A stretch of 64,000 nt of DNA from assembly GCA_963664825.1 (NCBI GenBank), contig OY761614.1, positions 32,001-96,000 on the forward strand, written 5' to 3'. The notes under the pieces were generated by a model that saw nothing but the letters and a program-made list of their open reading frames with translations, was not told the origin of the DNA and made no database searches. Below are positions 9,147 to 16,240 of this stretch, piece by piece (positions within the stretch are counted from its first letter, which is position 1; each line of letters opens with the position of its first letter). The position numbers were made by a program, and so were the translations under genes. The DNA comes from an uncultured Holophaga sp. GTDB taxonomy: Bacteria; Acidobacteriota; Holophagae; Holophagales; Holophagaceae.

Positions 9147-10199
9147 TCAAAGCAGCCCCATGGCCTGGGCCAGTTCAGCGTTCAGCACCGATCCCCCCGC
9201 GGCGCCCCGTTCGGTATTGTGGCCCAGCAGGGTGAATTTGATCCCCAGCACGGGACATCTCCGGATGCGCCCCACATGGACGCTCATGCCGCCATCCTGC
9301 TCCACGTCCCGGCGCACCTGGGGCCTGTTTTCGGCCTCGTGCAGGCGGATGGGCACGGAAGGCGCGCTGGGCAGTGCCAGACGCTGGGGCTCGGGTCGCC
9401 AATGACTGAGCGCCTCGCGCACCTGTTCGGGGCTGGGGTCCCCCTTCAGGCGCACGCTCACGGCCTCCGTATGGCCGTCCAACACGGGCACACGATGGCA
9501 GAGGGCCGAGATGGCCAGAGGCGCGTCTTCCACGCGATCCCCCTGGAAGCGCCCCAGCAGCTTGGCCGTCTCCACTTCAACCTTGGACTCCTCGCCCGGG
9601 ATGAAGGGGATCACGTTGCCCAGCAGATCGAGGCTGGAGACCCCGGGATAGCCCGCGCCGCTGGCGGCCTGCATGGAGGTCATGAGCACGGCCTCCACGC
9701 CGAAGGCCACTTGCAGGGGGGCCAGCGCCATCACCAACACCGTGGTGGTGCAATTGGGATTGGTGAGGATGGCCCCGGGCCAATGGCGCCGGGCGCGTTG
9801 GCCCTTGAGCAGCCCCAGATGTTCAGGGTTCACCTCTGGCACCAGCAGCGGAACGTCCTCCTCCATGCGGAAGCTCGAGGCGTTGCTGAAGACCAGGCCT
9901 CCGGCCCGAGCATAGGCGGGTTCCAGTTCCTGGGCCACGTCGGCCTCCAGGGCGCTGAACACCACAGGCGCGAGGGCCCGTTCGGGGGAAGCCTCCACCA
10001 GCACCCGATCCCCCAGCCCCCCATAGGGTTCTCCCTCCAGACGCCATTCGCAGGCCTCCGCATAGCGCTTGCCCGCACTGCGCCCGCTGGCGGCGAGGTG
10101 GGCGATCTCGAACCAGGGATGGGCCGCCAGCCTGCGCACGAAGCGCTGCCCCACCACCCCCGTAGCGCCCAGCACCGTCACTGGAATTTTTTCTGACAT
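9147..10199 (-). CDS. asd: Aspartate-semialdehyde dehydrogenase (archaeal/fungal-type)
   Basis: VLGATGVVGQRF, SNASSFRMEEDVPLLVPEVN, catalytic NPNCTT, QAASGAG, HNTERGAAGG. Confidence 0.95.
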   Translation of the reverse strand: MSEKIPVTVLGATGVVGQRFVRRLAAHPWFEIAHLAASGRSAGKRYAEACEWRLEGEPYGGLGDRVLVEASPERALAPVVFSALEADVAQELEPAYARAGGLVFSNASSFRMEEDVPLLVPEVNPEHLGLLKGQRARRHWPGAILTNPNCTTTVLVMALAPLQVAFGVEAVLMTSMQAASGAGYPGVSSLDLLGNVIPFIPGEESKVEVETAKLLGRFQGDRVEDAPLAISALCHRVPVLDGHTEAVSVRLKGDPSPEQVREALSHWRPEPQRLALPSAPSVPIRLHEAENRPQVRRDVEQDGGMSVHVGRIRRCPVLGIKFTLLGHNTERGAAGGSVLNAELAQAMGLL

Positions 10200-10212
10200 G
10201 TTTTCCCCTTTT

Positions 10213-10240
10213 TCTCCGTGCCCCCGGTACTTCCGTGATG
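10213..10240 (-). repeat. Degenerate single arm of the CACGGAG-periodic repeat family
   Basis: Minus strand CATCACGGAAGTACCGGGGGCACGGAGA resembles the arms at 32597 and 47018. Confidence 0.45.
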
Positions 10241-10249
10241 GGTTTTCCT

Positions 10250-11020
10250 TTACCCGCAGAGCACGGTCCCGCCATTCACGTTCAGGATCTCGCCGTGCAC
10301 CGCCACGGCCCATTCGCTGAGCAGGAAGGCGATGGGGCCCGCGATATCGTCGGCCACGGGAATGTGGCCCAGGGGGAAGAGGCCTTCCACCCTTTCCCGC
10401 TGGGCGAGATCCTCCCGCAGGGCAGCCGCCGAAAGGTCCGTGTCCACCCATCCGGGGGCCACGCAGTTCACCCGGATATGGGCAGGTCCCAGCTCCGTGG
10501 CAAGAGTCTTCGTCAGGGAGATCACGGCCCCCTTGCTGGCGGCGTAGGCCCCAAAGCCCGCCTCCCCCCGCTGGCCGGCGGTGCTGGAGATGAGCACGAG
10601 GCTGCCGCCCCCGGCCCGTTTGAGGGCCGGCACCACTTCCGCGTTCCACCGGAAGAGGCCCGTGAGATTGGTCTCCAGCACAGACTCCAGATTGGCCTCG
10701 TCCTTCAGCTCCGCAGGGGTGGGCAGCCAGACCCCCGCATTGCCCACGAAGGCGTCCAGCCCCCCCCAGGCCTGTTCCAGGCTGCGCACCACGCTCCGGG
10801 CGTCCTCCCGGGAGCGCTGATTGGCGGGAAAGGCCAGCACCTGGTGGCCGTCGGCGGCCAGGGATCTCACCAGCGCGTCGGCGGCATCCTTGCGGATCTG
10901 GTAGGTGAAGGCCACCCGCGCCCCCAGGCGGGCCAAGAGGCGCACGGTGGCTTGTCCGATGCCCCGACTGCCCCCGGTGATGAGGATGCGCTTGCCGGAA
11001 AGAGAAGGATTGAAGGTCAT
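10250..11020 (-). CDS. Classical SDR-family NAD(P)-dependent oxidoreductase inside the met operon
   Basis: TGGSRGIG, NAG, SSTAG...YAASK, RVNCVAPGWVDT. Confidence 0.93.
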   Translation of the reverse strand: MTFNPSLSGKRILITGGSRGIGQATVRLLARLGARVAFTYQIRKDAADALVRSLAADGHQVLAFPANQRSREDARSVVRSLEQAWGGLDAFVGNAGVWLPTPAELKDEANLESVLETNLTGLFRWNAEVVPALKRAGGGSLVLISSTAGQRGEAGFGAYAASKGAVISLTKTLATELGPAHIRVNCVAPGWVDTDLSAAALREDLAQRERVEGLFPLGHIPVADDIAGPIAFLLSEWAVAVHGEILNVNGGTVLCG

Positions 11021-11046
11021 GGGTTTCTCCTATCGAAGTGAAAGAG

Positions 11047-12381
11047 TCAGGCGGGAAAGCAGTAGGCGTGCAGACGCGGAATCAGGGAGGAGAGGCGGGT
11101 CTCCGGCACGAGGAAGGCCAGGGAGACCCCCGTATCCCCCGCCAGGATGCCCGCAATCGGTTCTTCCTGGAGGGCTGAAAGGAGCCCCAGGGCACGACCC
11201 GGGGCCTCCCGCAGCCCTTCGCCCACCAGGGCCACCACAGCCCAGCCCCGCTGGATCGCAAAGCCCGCCCCGGAGAGTTTTTCCAGCATCGCCTCCGCGG
11301 CCGCGGTCTCGGGGCGCACCACCAGGAGGCTGCCATCGGGGCTTGAGAGCAGCCCGTAGCGGGAGGCCCCGGCCTCACCGAGCCCCAGGGCCGCCTGGAA
11401 CAGGAGCTCCAGATCCTGGTCCGGCCCCAGGCGGAGGCAGACGAGGCCCTCCTTGTAGGCCACGGATGTGATCTCCCCGGGGCGCCGGGAGGGAGCCTGG
11501 ACGGAAATCACCGTGCGGCTGGCCGTGGGCCGGTGGGTGTTGGCCACCACCAGCCGGAAGGGAGACCTGGCCAGGGGCGCCAGGGAATCCGCGTGCAGCA
11601 CCTTGGCGCCGAAGGCCGAGAGGGCCGCGGCCTCCCGGAGGCTCATCACGGGAATGGGAAGGGCGCCGGGCACCAGGCTGGGATCGGCGCTCAGCACGCC
11701 GTCTACGTCGGTCCAGATCTGCACTTCCTCGGCATCCAGCGCCTCCCCCAAGAGCGTGGCGCTGGTATCGGATCCCCCCCGGCCCAGGGTGGTGGTAGCC
11801 CCATCCGGTGCGGCCCCCAGGAAACCCTGTGTGACCAGGAGGGCGCCAGCCTGGAGTTCCTCCCGCCAAGACCCGCAGGCGGCCCGGATGGCGGTCGTGT
11901 CGGGCTGGGCCCGCCCATGGCGGCCGTCCGTGCGCAGGACCTCCCGGACGTCCCGGTAATGGGCGGGAGCCCCTTCGGAACCCAGGAGGGCCACCAGCAG
12001 ATGGGCCGAGAGGGTCTCCCCCATGGCGAGGGCGCCATCCCGGGCCCGGGGGGAAGCCTCTCCCAGGAGGCCCATGCCTTCGAGCAGGTCGGCCAGCCTT
12101 TCGAAGAGGGGCTCCCAGGGGGTTTGCAAGGATTCCAGGAGCCCCAGTTCCCGGGCCACGGCCCGGTGGCGTCGCCAGAGAACCTCGTGCCGCGCTCGCG
12201 CGCCCTCGGAGTCTCCCTTCGCCGCCAGAGCCACCGCGCCGAGAATGGCGTCCGTGGTGCCGGAAAGGGCGCTCACCACCACCAGGCCGCCAGCGGGCAG
12301 TTCCGCCCGGACGATGGCCGCCGCCCGGACCAGAGCCTCGGGTGTGCCCAGGCTGGTGCCGCCGAATTTCAATACGCGCAT
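11047..12381 (-). CDS. lysC: Aspartate kinase (monofunctional, no fused homoserine dehydrogenase)
   Basis: MRVLKFGGTS, VVSALSG, TTLGRGGSDTSA, IWTDVDGV, C-terminal ACT-like region; 444 aa. Confidence 0.93.
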   Translation of the reverse strand: MRVLKFGGTSLGTPEALVRAAAIVRAELPAGGLVVVSALSGTTDAILGAVALAAKGDSEGARARHEVLWRRHRAVARELGLLESLQTPWEPLFERLADLLEGMGLLGEASPRARDGALAMGETLSAHLLVALLGSEGAPAHYRDVREVLRTDGRHGRAQPDTTAIRAACGSWREELQAGALLVTQGFLGAAPDGATTTLGRGGSDTSATLLGEALDAEEVQIWTDVDGVLSADPSLVPGALPIPVMSLREAAALSAFGAKVLHADSLAPLARSPFRLVVANTHRPTASRTVISVQAPSRRPGEITSVAYKEGLVCLRLGPDQDLELLFQAALGLGEAGASRYGLLSSPDGSLLVVRPETAAAEAMLEKLSGAGFAIQRGWAVVALVGEGLREAPGRALGLLSALQEEPIAGILAGDTGVSLAFLVPETRLSSLIPRLHAYCFPA

Positions 12382-13286
12382 GACCTCACCTCCTGGAGCA
12401 CCCGCCCCAACCAACCTGCGACCTGCTCCCACTCCATGAGGAAGGCGTCGTGGCCGTGGGGGCTATCCAGCCAGTCCAGCCGGCAGCGGGCCCCGGCCTG
12501 GAGGGCGGCCCCGGCCAGTTCTTCCAAGACGGGCCTGGGAAAGAGCAGATCAGGATCCATGCCCAGCACGAAGAGGGGCGCCCCCAGCCCCCCGAGGGCC
12601 GACACCAGACCGCCCCGGCCCCGGCCCAGATCGTGCTCATCCATGGCCTCCAGGAGGACTAGGTAGCTCGCCCGGGTGAAGCGCTGGGCGAGAGCCTCCC
12701 CATGGAAGGCCAGCCAGCTGCGGGCTTCAAGAGAGGATCCGAAGCGCCCGTCCAGACTGCTGGGCGTGCGAAAACTCAGCATGGCGGCCCGGCGGGCCAG
12801 GGCGATGGCCTCCGCATCCCCCAATCGCTCGCTCTTCAGGATGGCCCGCTGGACCTCGTTGGTGGCCCAGAGCCAGGCGTCGGCCCGAGCCCCGCAGCCG
12901 ATGACGCCGATGGCTTTGAAACGCTCCGGCGCCAGCAGCGCCAGTTCCAGCGCCACCATGCCCCCCAGGGAGCCGCCGATGAGGGCCTCGAAATGCAGAT
13001 CCGCATCCCGGATCCATTCCACCAGAACCCGGGCCTGCTCCCGGGGGTTCAGGCCCACCGAAGGCCCGGTGCTGCCATAGCAGCTCCCCGCCAAGTTGGG
13101 CGTCCATACGGTGGCCGCCTCGGGGGCCAGGGGAGCCCCCTCCCGAAAGAGAGGCGCCCACCAGCCCTTGACGCCCTCCCGGTCCGCCGCCTCGGGACTC
13201 CCGGTGAGGGCGTGCAGGAGCAGCACCCGGAGGGGCCCCTGCCCCGTCACCCGAAAGGCCGTACGGGCCCGGTCCAGCGGGCTCAT
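12369..13286 (-). CDS. metX: Homoserine O-acetyltransferase (MetX family)
   Basis: HALTGS, GWW, GSCYGSTGP, GGSLGG nucleophile elbow, SPHGHDAFL; ATG overlaps the metY stop. Confidence 0.88.
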   Translation of the reverse strand: MSPLDRARTAFRVTGQGPLRVLLLHALTGSPEAADREGVKGWWAPLFREGAPLAPEAATVWTPNLAGSCYGSTGPSVGLNPREQARVLVEWIRDADLHFEALIGGSLGGMVALELALLAPERFKAIGVIGCGARADAWLWATNEVQRAILKSERLGDAEAIALARRAAMLSFRTPSSLDGRFGSSLEARSWLAFHGEALAQRFTRASYLVLLEAMDEHDLGRGRGGLVSALGGLGAPLFVLGMDPDLLFPRPVLEELAGAALQAGARCRLDWLDSPHGHDAFLMEWEQVAGWLGRVLQEVRSCAY

Positions 13287-14584
13287 CCCTGCACCCCGGA
13301 GAGGGCTTGGTCCAGGTCCGCCCGGAGATCCTCCACATGCTCCAGGCCTACGGAAAGGCGGATCAGATCCTCCGGGACGCCCGAGGCCAGACGTTCCACC
13401 GGGGAGAGCTGCGAGTGGGTGGTGCTGGCGGGATGGATGATGAGGCTCTTGGCATCCCCCACGTTGGCCAACCGGGAGAAGAGCTGGACCCCGTCGATGA
13501 CGGCCTTTCCCCCCTGGAGCCCGCCCTTCACGCCGAAGGTGAGGATGCCTCCGAAGCCCGCCCCCTCCCGGAAATAGCGCCTGGCCAGGGCGTGGCTGGG
13601 ATGCTCCTTGAGGCCGGGATAGTTCACCCAGGCCACCTTGGGATGGGCCTGGAGCCACTGGGCCAGGTCAAGGGCGTTCTGGCCGTGGCGCTCCATGCGC
13701 AGGGGCAGCGTTTCGATGCCCTGCAGGAGTAGGAAGGCGTTGAAGGGGGAGAGGGCCGGTCCGAAGTCCCGCAGGCCCTCGACCCGGGCCTTCACCGCAA
13801 AGGCCGCCGCGCCTGCGATATCACTCAGGATCGCCCCGTGGTAGGCGGGGTGGGGCTCGGTGAATTCGGGGAACTTCCCGTTGCGCCAGTCGAAGCGCCC
13901 CCCATCCACCAGGACACCCCCCAGGCTGGTGCCGTGGCCCCCCAGGAATTTGGTGGCGCTGTGCACGACGATATCGGCGCCGTGCCGGAGGGGCTGGCAG
14001 AGCCAGGGCGAGGCCAGGGTGTTATCCACGATGAGGGGCACCCCCGCCTCGCGCGCCACCGCGGCCAGGGCCTCGAAGTGGGGCACATCCAGCTTGGGGT
14101 TGCCCAGAGCCTCCAGGAAGATGGCCTTGGTGGAGGGCCTCAGGGCCTGGCGGAAGGCCTCGACATCCCCGCTATCCACGAAGGAGACCTCGATGCCCTG
14201 GCGCCGGAGGCTCTGGCTGAAGAGGGTGCTGGTGCCGCCATAGAGATTATTGCCCGCCACGATGTGATCGCCGCTCTTGGCCAGGGTCTGGATCGCCAGG
14301 GCGATGGCCGACATGCCGGAAGCCGTGGCCAGGCCCGCCACGCCCCCTTCCAGCTGGGCCACCCGTTCCTCCAGCACCGCCAGGGTGGGGTTCCCGATCC
14401 GGGTATAGATGTTGCCCGGCTCCTCCAGGCTGAAGAGCCGCGCCCCCTGGTCGGCGGAATCGAACACATAGCTGCTGGTCTGGTAGATGGGCACCGCGCG
14501 GCTGCGGGTATCCCCATCGGGGGTGTGGCCGCCGTGGAGGACGAGGGTCTCGAAGCGGTGTTGGACAGATGCAGTCTCACCCAT
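13283..14584 (-). CDS. metY: O-acetylhomoserine sulfhydrylase (aminocarboxypropyltransferase)
   Basis: AVPIYQTSSYVF, IYTRIGNPT, PLP lysine HSATKFLGGHG, LANVGDAKSLIIHPASTTH. Confidence 0.95.
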   Translation of the reverse strand: MGETASVQHRFETLVLHGGHTPDGDTRSRAVPIYQTSSYVFDSADQGARLFSLEEPGNIYTRIGNPTLAVLEERVAQLEGGVAGLATASGMSAIALAIQTLAKSGDHIVAGNNLYGGTSTLFSQSLRRQGIEVSFVDSGDVEAFRQALRPSTKAIFLEALGNPKLDVPHFEALAAVAREAGVPLIVDNTLASPWLCQPLRHGADIVVHSATKFLGGHGTSLGGVLVDGGRFDWRNGKFPEFTEPHPAYHGAILSDIAGAAAFAVKARVEGLRDFGPALSPFNAFLLLQGIETLPLRMERHGQNALDLAQWLQAHPKVAWVNYPGLKEHPSHALARRYFREGAGFGGILTFGVKGGLQGGKAVIDGVQLFSRLANVGDAKSLIIHPASTTHSQLSPVERLASGVPEDLIRLSVGLEHVEDLRADLDQALSGVQG

Positions 14585-14702
14585 GGCGGACTCCGTACAG
14601 AGCCTCCCCGACCCCGTCGGGGGGCAATTGATGTGCCCTTGTCCCCCTTGCTAAGGGCCTCCGGGCACGTCGAGGGAGTCTCGCCGCTCCTAGCTCGCTC
14701 CA

Positions 14703-14741
14703 AGAAAAAACGAAGGGGCCCGATAGAATCGGGCCCCTTCG
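14703..14741 (-). terminator. Intrinsic terminator, expression platform of the SAM-I riboswitch
   Basis: Minus strand CGAAGGGGCCCGAT-TCT-ATCGGGCCCCTTCG followed by TTTTTTCTT. Confidence 0.9.
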
Positions 14742-14758
14742 CGTGTGTCAGTTGTACA

Positions 14759-14865
14759 GCTCGACATCTCTCCGGCAAGTCCGCCGGCAGGAATTAGCAC
14801 CTTACGCGTCAACGCAGGTTGCCAAGGTTTCACAGGGCCCGTCCCTCCACCTTTCTGGATAGCTC
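14759..14865 (-). ncRNA. SAM-I (S-box) riboswitch aptamer
   Basis: Minus strand CTATCCAGAAAGGTGGAGGGACGGGCCCTGTGAAACCTTGGCAACC...AAGGTGCTAATTCC...GAGAGATG matches S-box consensus; upstream of metY. Confidence 0.95.
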
Positions 14866-14922: not shown

Positions 14923-15627
14923 TCAAGAGAGCCGCCATCCCTCCACGTCCCTGCGCACTTCCAGAGGCGCGCCCAGCTTGGTCAGGCTCCGCAGCAGGCG
15001 GGCCCGGTAGCGGGGGAAGAGGTCCCTGCCCCCCCAGGCCGCCCGGTCCCAATCCAGCAGCAGGGCTTCCCCCTCCGGCGTGATCATCACGTTGGTGGCG
15101 TTCAGGTCCGGCGAGAAGAGGCCCCAGGCGCAGAGGGCCTCGATGCGCCCTCGGAGCTGCGCCAGGAAATTAGTCCCTGAATCCCAGTGCCGGGGCCAGG
15201 GGGAGCCTTCCGCGTAGCGAGTGAGGAAGAGGCCCTCGAAGCCCCAGGCCCTGTGCCGCAAGGCGTAACCCAGGGGTTCCACCGTGGGGAAGCCCGCCAA
15301 CCAGAGCGCTCGGTGCACCAGGAATTCCTGGGCGAAGCGGGCGGGGGAAAGATAGATCCCCGCGTTCAGGTGCCGCACCAGGCCGCCCCGGCGGTAGGGC
15401 CGCAGGACCACCTCCCCCAGGCGCCGGACACCCCCTCGCCCGAAGGCTCCCTCCAGCCCTTGAGCTGCCCCCCCCAGATCCAGCTCCGGGGAAGCGATCA
15501 GCGTCCAGCCAGCCCCCAGCCCGGGGATCTCGATCCCAGGGCTGCAGACGGGGGCCTGGGCCGGACTTCGGCGTTCGAAGGGCCAGAGGGCAGGCAGGGC
15601 CGGAATAGCGGGGAGGGATCGATTCAT
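14923..15627 (-). CDS. Lipopolysaccharide kinase (KdkA/InaA/WaaP family)
   Basis: VLRPYRRGGLVR, RFAQEF, PDLNATN, LLDWDRA, RLLRSLTKL resemble Kdo kinase; start trimmed to ATG 15627. Confidence 0.8.
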   Translation of the reverse strand: MNRSLPAIPALPALWPFERRSPAQAPVCSPGIEIPGLGAGWTLIASPELDLGGAAQGLEGAFGRGGVRRLGEVVLRPYRRGGLVRHLNAGIYLSPARFAQEFLVHRALWLAGFPTVEPLGYALRHRAWGFEGLFLTRYAEGSPWPRHWDSGTNFLAQLRGRIEALCAWGLFSPDLNATNVMITPEGEALLLDWDRAAWGGRDLFPRYRARLLRSLTKLGAPLEVRRDVEGWRLS

Positions 15628-15697
15628 GACATCCAGATTGGCGCCGCTCCAGGCTGCGGGCCAGAGGAACCTTGAGGGTGGATTGCACAGGGCAGAA

Positions 15698-16240
15698 AAG
15701 AACGCGAACAGCGCCAAGGAAGCGAAGGCCGCGAATGGGACCTCAGGCAAAGGGGAACCTGGTTGTCGGCTTGGCTTAGCCAGAAAAGCCCACCACGGAT
15801 ACACACGGATTTCCGGGAACACCTCAGTCCGGCTGGTCTCCTTCCGGAACCGGGAAGGTCCATCTCAACCCGTGCGTTTCGCCAGGGAAGGAGAGGCAGA
15901 AAGTGACAGGGATGGAGGGGATGAACGCACTGCTGGGGCTGGCGGCCCTGGTCGGCAAGACTGAACCAGGTTTCCCAATGGCCGCAGGGAAACGGATGGA
16001 AAAAGAAGGTTGGCCGGGGATGCACCGGCAACACCTCGCAAATTCAGGCGCCCTGGCCCGCCTGCTGCACAGCCCAGGGTGCCGAGTCCGCCAGTATCTG
16101 ATCCCCGTTGATCCCCGGCCCTGAGGCCTGCTGGAGTAATCGGGCCTGGATCCCATGACCTCTACCCCTGTCCGCTTCTTCGCGCTCTTGGCCCCCTTCG
16201 CGACCTTCGCGTTCATTCCTTTCCTGATATCGAGACCCCG
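15698..16240. repeat. Repeat family A, long copy (543 bp) with 9-nt-periodic inverted terminal arms and nested inverted repeats
   Basis: Left 41 nt match 19839-19879 with 1 mismatch; right 50 nt (16191-16240) match 19935-19984 with 4 mismatches; arms are mutually inverted. Confidence 0.85.

Follow-up and report, generated by a model that had tools for sequence, protein, structure and literature searches.

Homoserine dehydrogenase (Hom; EC 1.1.1.3) catalyzes a textbook step toward methionine, threonine, and isoleucine. Canonical Hom, present also as the C-terminal domains of ThrA and MetL, is composed of the NAD_binding_3 (PF03447) and Homoserine_dh (PF00742) domains and is ~330-370 aa in length. 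Escherichia coli has ThrA and the methionine-specific MetL (aspartokinase II/homoserine dehydrogenase II), and the latter is controlled by the MetJ repressor. A stretch of 64,000 nucleotides (hereafter, the window; G000:C1:32001-96000) from the closed genome of an uncultured Holophaga sp. (G000; 3,474,696 bp, 96.55% complete; Holophagaceae, Acidobacteriota) contains a methionine operon without hom. On the minus strand, an S-adenosylmethionine (SAM)-I riboswitch and a terminator-like hairpin are followed by metY, metX, the aspartate kinase gene ask, a gene for a short-chain dehydrogenase/reductase (SDR) at positions 10250-11020, and the aspartate-semialdehyde dehydrogenase gene asd. The SDR is probably the Hom of this organism, a non-orthologous enzyme that has displaced the canonical one, because it occupies the same slot as canonical hom does in relatives and the genome has no canonical copy.

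The reaction predicted for the SDR is the same as that of canonical Hom, while the SDR is a 256-aa single-domain protein with no relation to canonical Hom in sequence or fold. With the canonical hom genes of the relatives G019, G021, G088, and G089, it shares the slot between ask and asd, and the SAM-I riboswitch. Similar to MetL in E. coli, a methionine-regulated pair of kinase and dehydrogenase is present beside an apparent ThrA-type fusion in the 13 related genomes that have both Hom and the SDR. Unlike the MetL fusion, ask and the SDR are separate genes, the dehydrogenase is an SDR, and the control is through a riboswitch. The SDR resembles FabG and Bacillus glucose 1-dehydrogenase in its classical SDR fold (TM ~0.9, 32-35% identity), the TGxSRGIG motif, and the N-S-Y-K tetrad. 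It differs in its location in a methionine operon and in the STAGQRGE motif, W98, and W191, which are not seen in the aligned Helicobacter pylori FabG.

For the proposed chemistry, in which an SDR acts between a short-chain carboxylate semialdehyde and the corresponding alcohol, precedents are YdfG/serine 3-dehydrogenase and the SDR domain with which Chloroflexus malonyl-CoA reductase reduces malonate semialdehyde. Neither family is found among the 25 best NCBIfam matches of the operon SDR. The SDR fold and the Hom reaction are each known; their combination and the displacement of hom in place would be new. Neither an SDR-type nor any other alternative homoserine dehydrogenase is described in the open-access papers and bioRxiv preprints searched. 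The consulted passages of a comparative work on non-orthologous amino-acid enzymes (PMC9026213) and of the GapMind 2026 update (PMC13759103) list no alternative Hom.

The missing step in the genome

The first-pass annotation noted that no hom gene is present in the window and named a canonical hom elsewhere in the genome, together with SDR orthologues unlinked to aspartate-pathway genes, as evidence against its proposal. The absence extends to the whole closed genome. The profile search with PF00742 revealed no candidates, and 14 of 14 control genomes were positive. The sole match to PF03447 is weak (15 bits) and corresponds to a GFO/IDH/MocA oxidoreductase. When 12 Hom-containing proteins of relatives were used as tblastn queries, only their kinase halves were matched, on the operon ask, and the best E-value for the dehydrogenase part was ~0.08.

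Several other amino-acid genes were looked for without success. Neither dapA nor a second PF02774 protein (ArgC or LysY) was found in the genome. Among three model types for homoserine kinase, TIGR02535 and TIGR00938 gave no match in the genome and TIGR00191 matched another protein with only 41 bits. A pyridoxal-phosphate-dependent (PALP) enzyme at G000:C1:2083196-2084593 (L057 1096-2493), flanked by an M20 peptidase and an amidohydrolase, matches ThrC with 186 bits against the cut-off of 167. Among Acidobacteriota, genomes with Hom mostly encode a strong ThrC (E ~1e-80), and in many Hom-less genomes the only ThrC match is of a weak class (1e-51 to 1e-58); the match in G000 belongs to the weak class and is probably a paralogue and not threonine synthase. 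For the last step of methionine synthesis, MetH is encoded outside the operon (1170 bits), and MetE was not found in the genome.

The organism probably depends on an external supply of lysine or diaminopimelate, threonine, and arginine, a notable condition for a 3.5-Mb genome of free-living size. The aspartate pathway here is reduced to the synthesis of methionine alone, with no other visible use of the semialdehyde, and Hom is its one missing step. In such a methionine-only pathway, the sole ask and asd can be placed behind a SAM riboswitch. Since aspartate semialdehyde leads only to homoserine, one reductase is lacking, and the one unassigned gene of the operon encodes a reductase.

Operon comparison in Holophagaceae

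Thirty-four operons from Holophagaceae, chosen by hand, were compared. Operons bearing the SDR were located through the SDR match, and the rest through the coordinates of metY or ask. An SDR orthologue is positioned directly after ask in 23 of the 34, and five of these 23 (G000, G002, G004, G006, and G086) show the order ask-SDR-asd. Canonical hom with PF00742 occupies the slot in five operons (G019, G021, G087, G088, and G089). Their order is ask-hom-asd except in G088, where asd is located ~2 kb beyond hom. Six operons have neither the SDR nor hom, and no operon has both. Both types of occupant are seen inside one genus, g14: hom is in the slot in G021, G088, and G089, and the SDR is in the slot in G086, which has no Hom anywhere.

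The adjacency of ask and the SDR is maintained in at least eight genera at 69-89% identity. The acyltransferase of the operon is MetX in most cases, and MetA/HTS (PF04204, 448-461 bits) in G012, G015, G047, G049, G055, and G062. The link between ask and the SDR is unchanged whether MetX or the unrelated MetA occupies the acyltransferase slot. In the phylogenetic tree of ask (31 rows; G060, G086, and G087 were omitted due to matches shorter than 380 residues), SDR-bearing, hom-bearing, and empty operons are interspersed. This indicates that the occupant of the slot has changed several times.

Open frames of 591-888 aa around the SDR matches were considered as ask-SDR fusions and rejected, as ask and the SDR are in different frames (L145 and L146 were checked). 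In the G087 operon (L165, G087:C20:42000-52500), hom and asd are each split into three pieces in different frames, which reflects decay of the operon or errors in the assembly. In at least eight relatives, a second, distinct SDR (33-36% identical, without the STAGQRGE motif) is encoded ~300 nt downstream, co-directional with the operon (Table 1). The gene preceding it is asd, that of the first SDR, or ask, and it is not present in the window.

Presence pattern in the family

Eighty family genomes that are at least 90% complete were screened for SDR orthologues with the threshold of E ≤ 1e-60 (69-89% identity). These genomes are relatives and not independent, and the counts are given without a statistical test. 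Hom was not found in 16 of the 80. An SDR orthologue is present in 24, which comprise 11 of the 16 Hom-less and 13 of the 64 Hom-bearing genomes. The Hom-less genomes with the SDR belong to g1 (G000, G003, G006, G007, and G008), g5 (G051, G058, G060, and G064), g14 (G086), and g3 (G102); besides G000, G007 and G064 are closed. The gene metY is kept in 10 of the 16 Hom-less genomes, and the SDR is present in nine of the 10. Five genomes lack both Hom and the SDR; metY is missing from four of them, and ask is missing from three of the four. These four genomes look like plain auxotrophs, and two of them are only 1.1-1.2 Mb.

The first-pass annotation suggested that the SDR is a candidate homoserine dehydrogenase whose orthologues would co-localize with aspartate-pathway genes and anti-correlate with hom. 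The co-localization is borne out by the 23 operons with the SDR directly after ask. No operon of the 34 has both genes, and the anti-correlation is partial at the genome level. The candidate assignment thus gains support, on a comparative-genomic basis.

Sequence and structure of the SDR

The SDR scores well above the cut-offs (~27 bits) of both adh_short_C2 (PF13561) and adh_short (PF00106). It is not a canonical Hom, as neither PF00742 nor PF03447 matches its sequence. The TGxxxGxG and YxxxK motifs, already described as intact from the sequence, are present as T15-G-G-S-R-G-I-G22 and Y159-A-A-S-K163. All 62 aligned homologues share the glycine motif and the residues N118, S146, Y159, and K163. 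It is inferred from the FabG-like Ser-Arg in TGGSRGIG and from the lack of an acidic residue ending strand 2 that NADPH is the likely cofactor, following the general rules for SDRs. The AlphaFold model (pLDDT 94.3, pTM 0.92) shows a single-domain Rossmann fold. Compared with solved SDR structures, its TM-scores are 0.86-0.93, and the closest matches, with 32-35% identity, are structures of FabG and glucose dehydrogenases.

The SDR reaches the cut-off of no model in NCBIfam. The nearest miss is the glucose 1-dehydrogenase model NF005559 (207.3 bits, cut-off 215), and the FabG models are also under their cut-offs (TIGR01830, 175.7 against 297.75; NF004197, 168.5 against 332; NF009466, 189.5 against 222). 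In databases, the orthologues are named "SDR family oxidoreductase", "FabG", or "glucose 1-dehydrogenase". Other SDRs elsewhere in the genome are just 33-34% identical to the operon SDR.

In the phylogenetic tree, all 30 operon SDR tips form one clade with the support of 0.90, and the stem of the clade is long (0.65 substitutions per site). The clade has 14 fixed residues that are rare elsewhere: R11, Q68, R69, G93, T101, L111, E116, T117, W125, A127, A132, F215, L234, and T252. These residues would fit a change of substrate, and they do not pinpoint the substrate itself.

The top NCBIfam and PDB matches, FabG and glucose 1-dehydrogenase, would suit a different explanation, in which the SDR is a passenger FabG-like ketoreductase or sugar dehydrogenase, homoserine or methionine is imported, and the operon is a decaying remnant. 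The loss of other amino-acid genes (dapA, thrB, and the second PF02774 protein) and the fragmented hom and asd in the G087 operon point in the same direction. Against this stand five intact and tightly coupled genes under an intact riboswitch, and the ask-SDR adjacency that persists across at least eight genera. The failure to reach any FabG or glucose dehydrogenase cut-off and the distance from the other SDRs of the genome do not suit a passenger either, and useless copies of the sole ask and asd would not be expected to persist. A passenger role is very improbable.

The wider SDR family and observations against the assignment

The operon SDRs are included in a large family (43-52% identity) found from Acidobacteriota, Gemmatimonadota, Zixibacteria, Bacteroidota, and others. 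The STAGQRGE motif, W98, and W191 are the signature of this wider family and are common to the operon SDRs. Its distribution was analyzed with a family profile (E ≤ 1e-85) in 401 Acidobacteriota genomes at least 90% complete, 359 of which are outside Holophagaceae. Three of the genomes counted are flagged as unpublished (G174, G198, and G286), and none of the conclusions depends on a single one of them. No PF00742 match was found in 106 of the 401 genomes, 89 of which are among the 359 outside Holophagaceae. A strong ThrC (E ≤ 1e-60) is encoded in at least 20 of these 89 Hom-less genomes, and 12 of the 20 also lack the SDR family. Seven genomes of the family f47 (G231, G283, G301, G325, G349, G365, and G373), which are 5.2-8.7 Mb in size and include five single contigs, are among the 12. 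The thrC neighborhood of one of them, G231, has no obvious dehydrogenase candidate.

Several observations weigh against the SDR being the Hom. First, the structure search, used as a clue to the substrate, returned generic SDRs only, similar to FabG and glucose dehydrogenase. Second, the wider family does not behave as a general substitute for Hom: outside Holophagaceae it is present in 31 of the 89 Hom-less and 106 of the 270 Hom-bearing genomes (odds ratio 0.83), and 20 of 50 genomes chosen for carrying it lack Hom, about the background rate. Third, the neighbor clustering of 77 outgroup loci (43-52% identity, from 80 tested) revealed only lineage-specific groups with no conserved aspartate-pathway context. 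Genes for methionine synthesis are beside the SDR only in L096, and an unrelated LysC-type ask is ~2 kb from the SDR in L068 and L071. Fourth, the Hom-less, ThrC-bearing genomes without the SDR family must have a highly divergent Hom or some other substitute for it.

Within Holophagaceae, G017 is an exception. Its operon is metY-metX-ask-asd, and neither Hom nor the SDR was found in this assembly of 450 contigs, in which a contig ends inside asd. The 13 genomes with both enzymes demonstrate that the two are not strictly exclusive. In 12 of them, Hom is included in open frames of ~700-900 aa, suggesting ThrA-type fusions, and G002 has only short Hom matches of monofunctional size. Furthermore, an SDR orthologue is retained in G003 (76% identity) and G102 (71% identity), two genomes in which no ask, asd, or metY was found; the SDR gene of G003 is cut by a contig end. 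The protein may thus serve another purpose, or an additional one.

It is conceivable from these observations that the Hom activity is supplied by an unrecognized enzyme elsewhere, and that the SDR has another redox function around methionine or aspartate, such as aldehyde removal or homoserine oxidation for salvage. The 12 or more Hom-less genomes with a strong ThrC and no member of this SDR family, the SDRs of G003 and G102 detached from the pathway, and the 13 genomes with both enzymes are all consistent with it. It leaves unexplained why hom and the SDR share a slot and never occur together in 34 operons, and why nine of the 10 family genomes that lack Hom and keep metY carry the SDR. The genome offered no other candidate, and its only weak NAD_binding_3 match is a GFO/IDH/MocA protein. 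Overall, an enzyme elsewhere is considered unlikely, and the SDR is retained as the probable Hom.

In G102 (L151 3182-6730), the SDR follows a 614-aa lyase of the aspartase/fumarase class with an N-terminal cyclic-nucleotide-binding domain and a 276-aa protein with no Pfam match; a BacA-family protein is also beside the SDR. In L096 (3430-6747), from the Terriglobales metagenome-assembled genome G124, metY, metX, and an SDR 46% identical to the operon SDR are co-directional. G124 (5.2 Mb) has no PF00742 match and carries genes of the PF02774 family (asd/ArgC type), and a SAM riboswitch was not found in L096. The L096 SDR is nested in the outgroup, and thus it would represent an independent event, a possible second recruitment from this SDR family. 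In the wider family, frames of 590-940 aa were rejected as fusions; they are off-frame read-through of the upstream gene, and each SDR starts at its own MIDL... methionine.

Organization of the operon and its other enzymes

The features of the operon are listed in Table 1. The start codon of metX and the stop codon of metY overlap as ATGA, the end of metX runs 13 nt into the start of ask, and gaps of 26 nt and 50 nt separate ask from the SDR and the SDR from asd, respectively. The hairpin probably serves the riboswitch as its expression platform, and it is the only terminator-like site found on the minus strand inside the operon. The five genes are presumably co-transcribed in one unit. The first-pass annotation had the gene order, the two gaps, and the riboswitch at the right coordinates; its description of the unit is correct overall apart from the exact start of metX, which is 13286 and not lower. 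The domain search agrees with it that the 444-aa kinase has no fused dehydrogenase domain. Two scans of related loci, hom-type operons included, revealed the SAM-I aptamer ahead of metY in nine of nine and 11 of 12 loci; the sole miss is L096, outside Holophagaceae. A 299-aa open reading frame without a Pfam match is located directly upstream of the riboswitch on the same strand (window 14923-15822).

Table 1. Positions of the operon features in the window, and of the second SDR in related loci
Feature	Position	Strand	Evidence
SAM-I riboswitch aptamer	14761-14865	-	RF00162, 79.5 bits (gathering 44.4), model 1-108 of 108
Intrinsic terminator-like hairpin	14742-14710	-	15-bp stem with 10 G-C pairs, then TTTTTTCTT; between aptamer and metY start
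metY, O-acetylhomoserine sulfhydrylase	13283-14584	-	PF01053, 462 bits; TIGR01326, 642.5 bits (cut-off 495)
metX-like homoserine O-acyltransferase (alpha/beta hydrolase)	12369-13286	-	Best NCBIfam matches are MetX models
ask, monofunctional aspartate kinase, 444 aa	11047-12381	-	TIGR00657, 254 bits (cut-off 209)
Classical SDR, 256 aa, candidate non-orthologous homoserine dehydrogenase	10250-11020	-	PF13561, 179.8 bits; PF00106, 173.7 bits
asd, aspartate-semialdehyde dehydrogenase, archaeal/EA type	9147-10199	-	TIGR00978 (asd_EA), 423 bits; NF006416, 447 bits
Second SDR in L162	1355-2098		
Second SDR in L163	8341-9084		
Second SDR in L146	8937-9695		
Second SDR in L168	5435-6172		

The MetX models match the acyltransferase under their own cut-offs (TIGR01392, 168 bits; NF001209, 163 bits). 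The kinase is composed of the AA_kinase domain and a weak ACT match. It is the sole aspartate kinase of the genome; the second kinase match (47 bits) is on a short open reading frame similar to amino-acid kinases. The operon asd is the only PF02774 match in the genome.

Methanogens and Desulfovibrio are known to make homocysteine from the semialdehyde by a homoserine-independent route. The archaeal type of the operon asd is compatible with a comparable bypass, in which the semialdehyde is converted directly to homocysteine without free homoserine, or with a bifunctional asd, and the SDR would serve this variant route. Such a route does not account for the conservation of metX (metA in some relatives) and metY, both of which act on homoserine or its ester, or for canonical hom as the alternative occupant of the slot in relatives. 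On the gene context, a bypass of this kind is regarded as extremely unlikely.

Proposed function and its significance

The preferred assignment of the SDR as Hom would complete the pathway as follows. Under low SAM, the terminator would be bypassed and one transcript would give five enzymes. Ask would phosphorylate aspartate, and Asd would reduce the phosphate to the semialdehyde. The SDR would then reduce L-aspartate-4-semialdehyde to the primary alcohol L-homoserine through Tyr/Lys/Ser chemistry. MetX would acylate homoserine, MetY would add sulfide to yield homocysteine, and MetH would methylate homocysteine. One SAM-repressed transcript would thus cover the route from aspartate to homocysteine with ask, asd, the SDR as Hom, metX, and metY.

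The enzyme would have been recruited from the widespread FabG-like SDR family, whose fold is unrelated to that of the canonical PF00742/PF03447 enzyme. Hom is not known to date in more than one fold, and it appears reasonably likely that the Holophagaceae SDR clade is a second, unrelated form of Hom, which displaced hom in place and carries the full flux in the Hom-less species. If so, it would be a non-homologous isofunctional enzyme for EC 1.1.1.3, and the operon, conserved and under riboswitch control, would offer a clean natural case of one gene displacing another.

The gap extends beyond the Holophagaceae clade, as the 106 Acidobacteriota genomes without PF00742 include some with a clear ThrC. 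L096 and the absence of PF00742 from about a quarter of the genomes hint that replacement of Hom by analogous reductases may be common in Acidobacteriota and may have occurred more than once. Automated pathway reconstruction assumes one Hom family, so that genomes without it are scored as auxotrophs. If the SDR is the Hom, such calls would be corrected for a lineage of bacteria that are common in soil, sediment, and wastewater.

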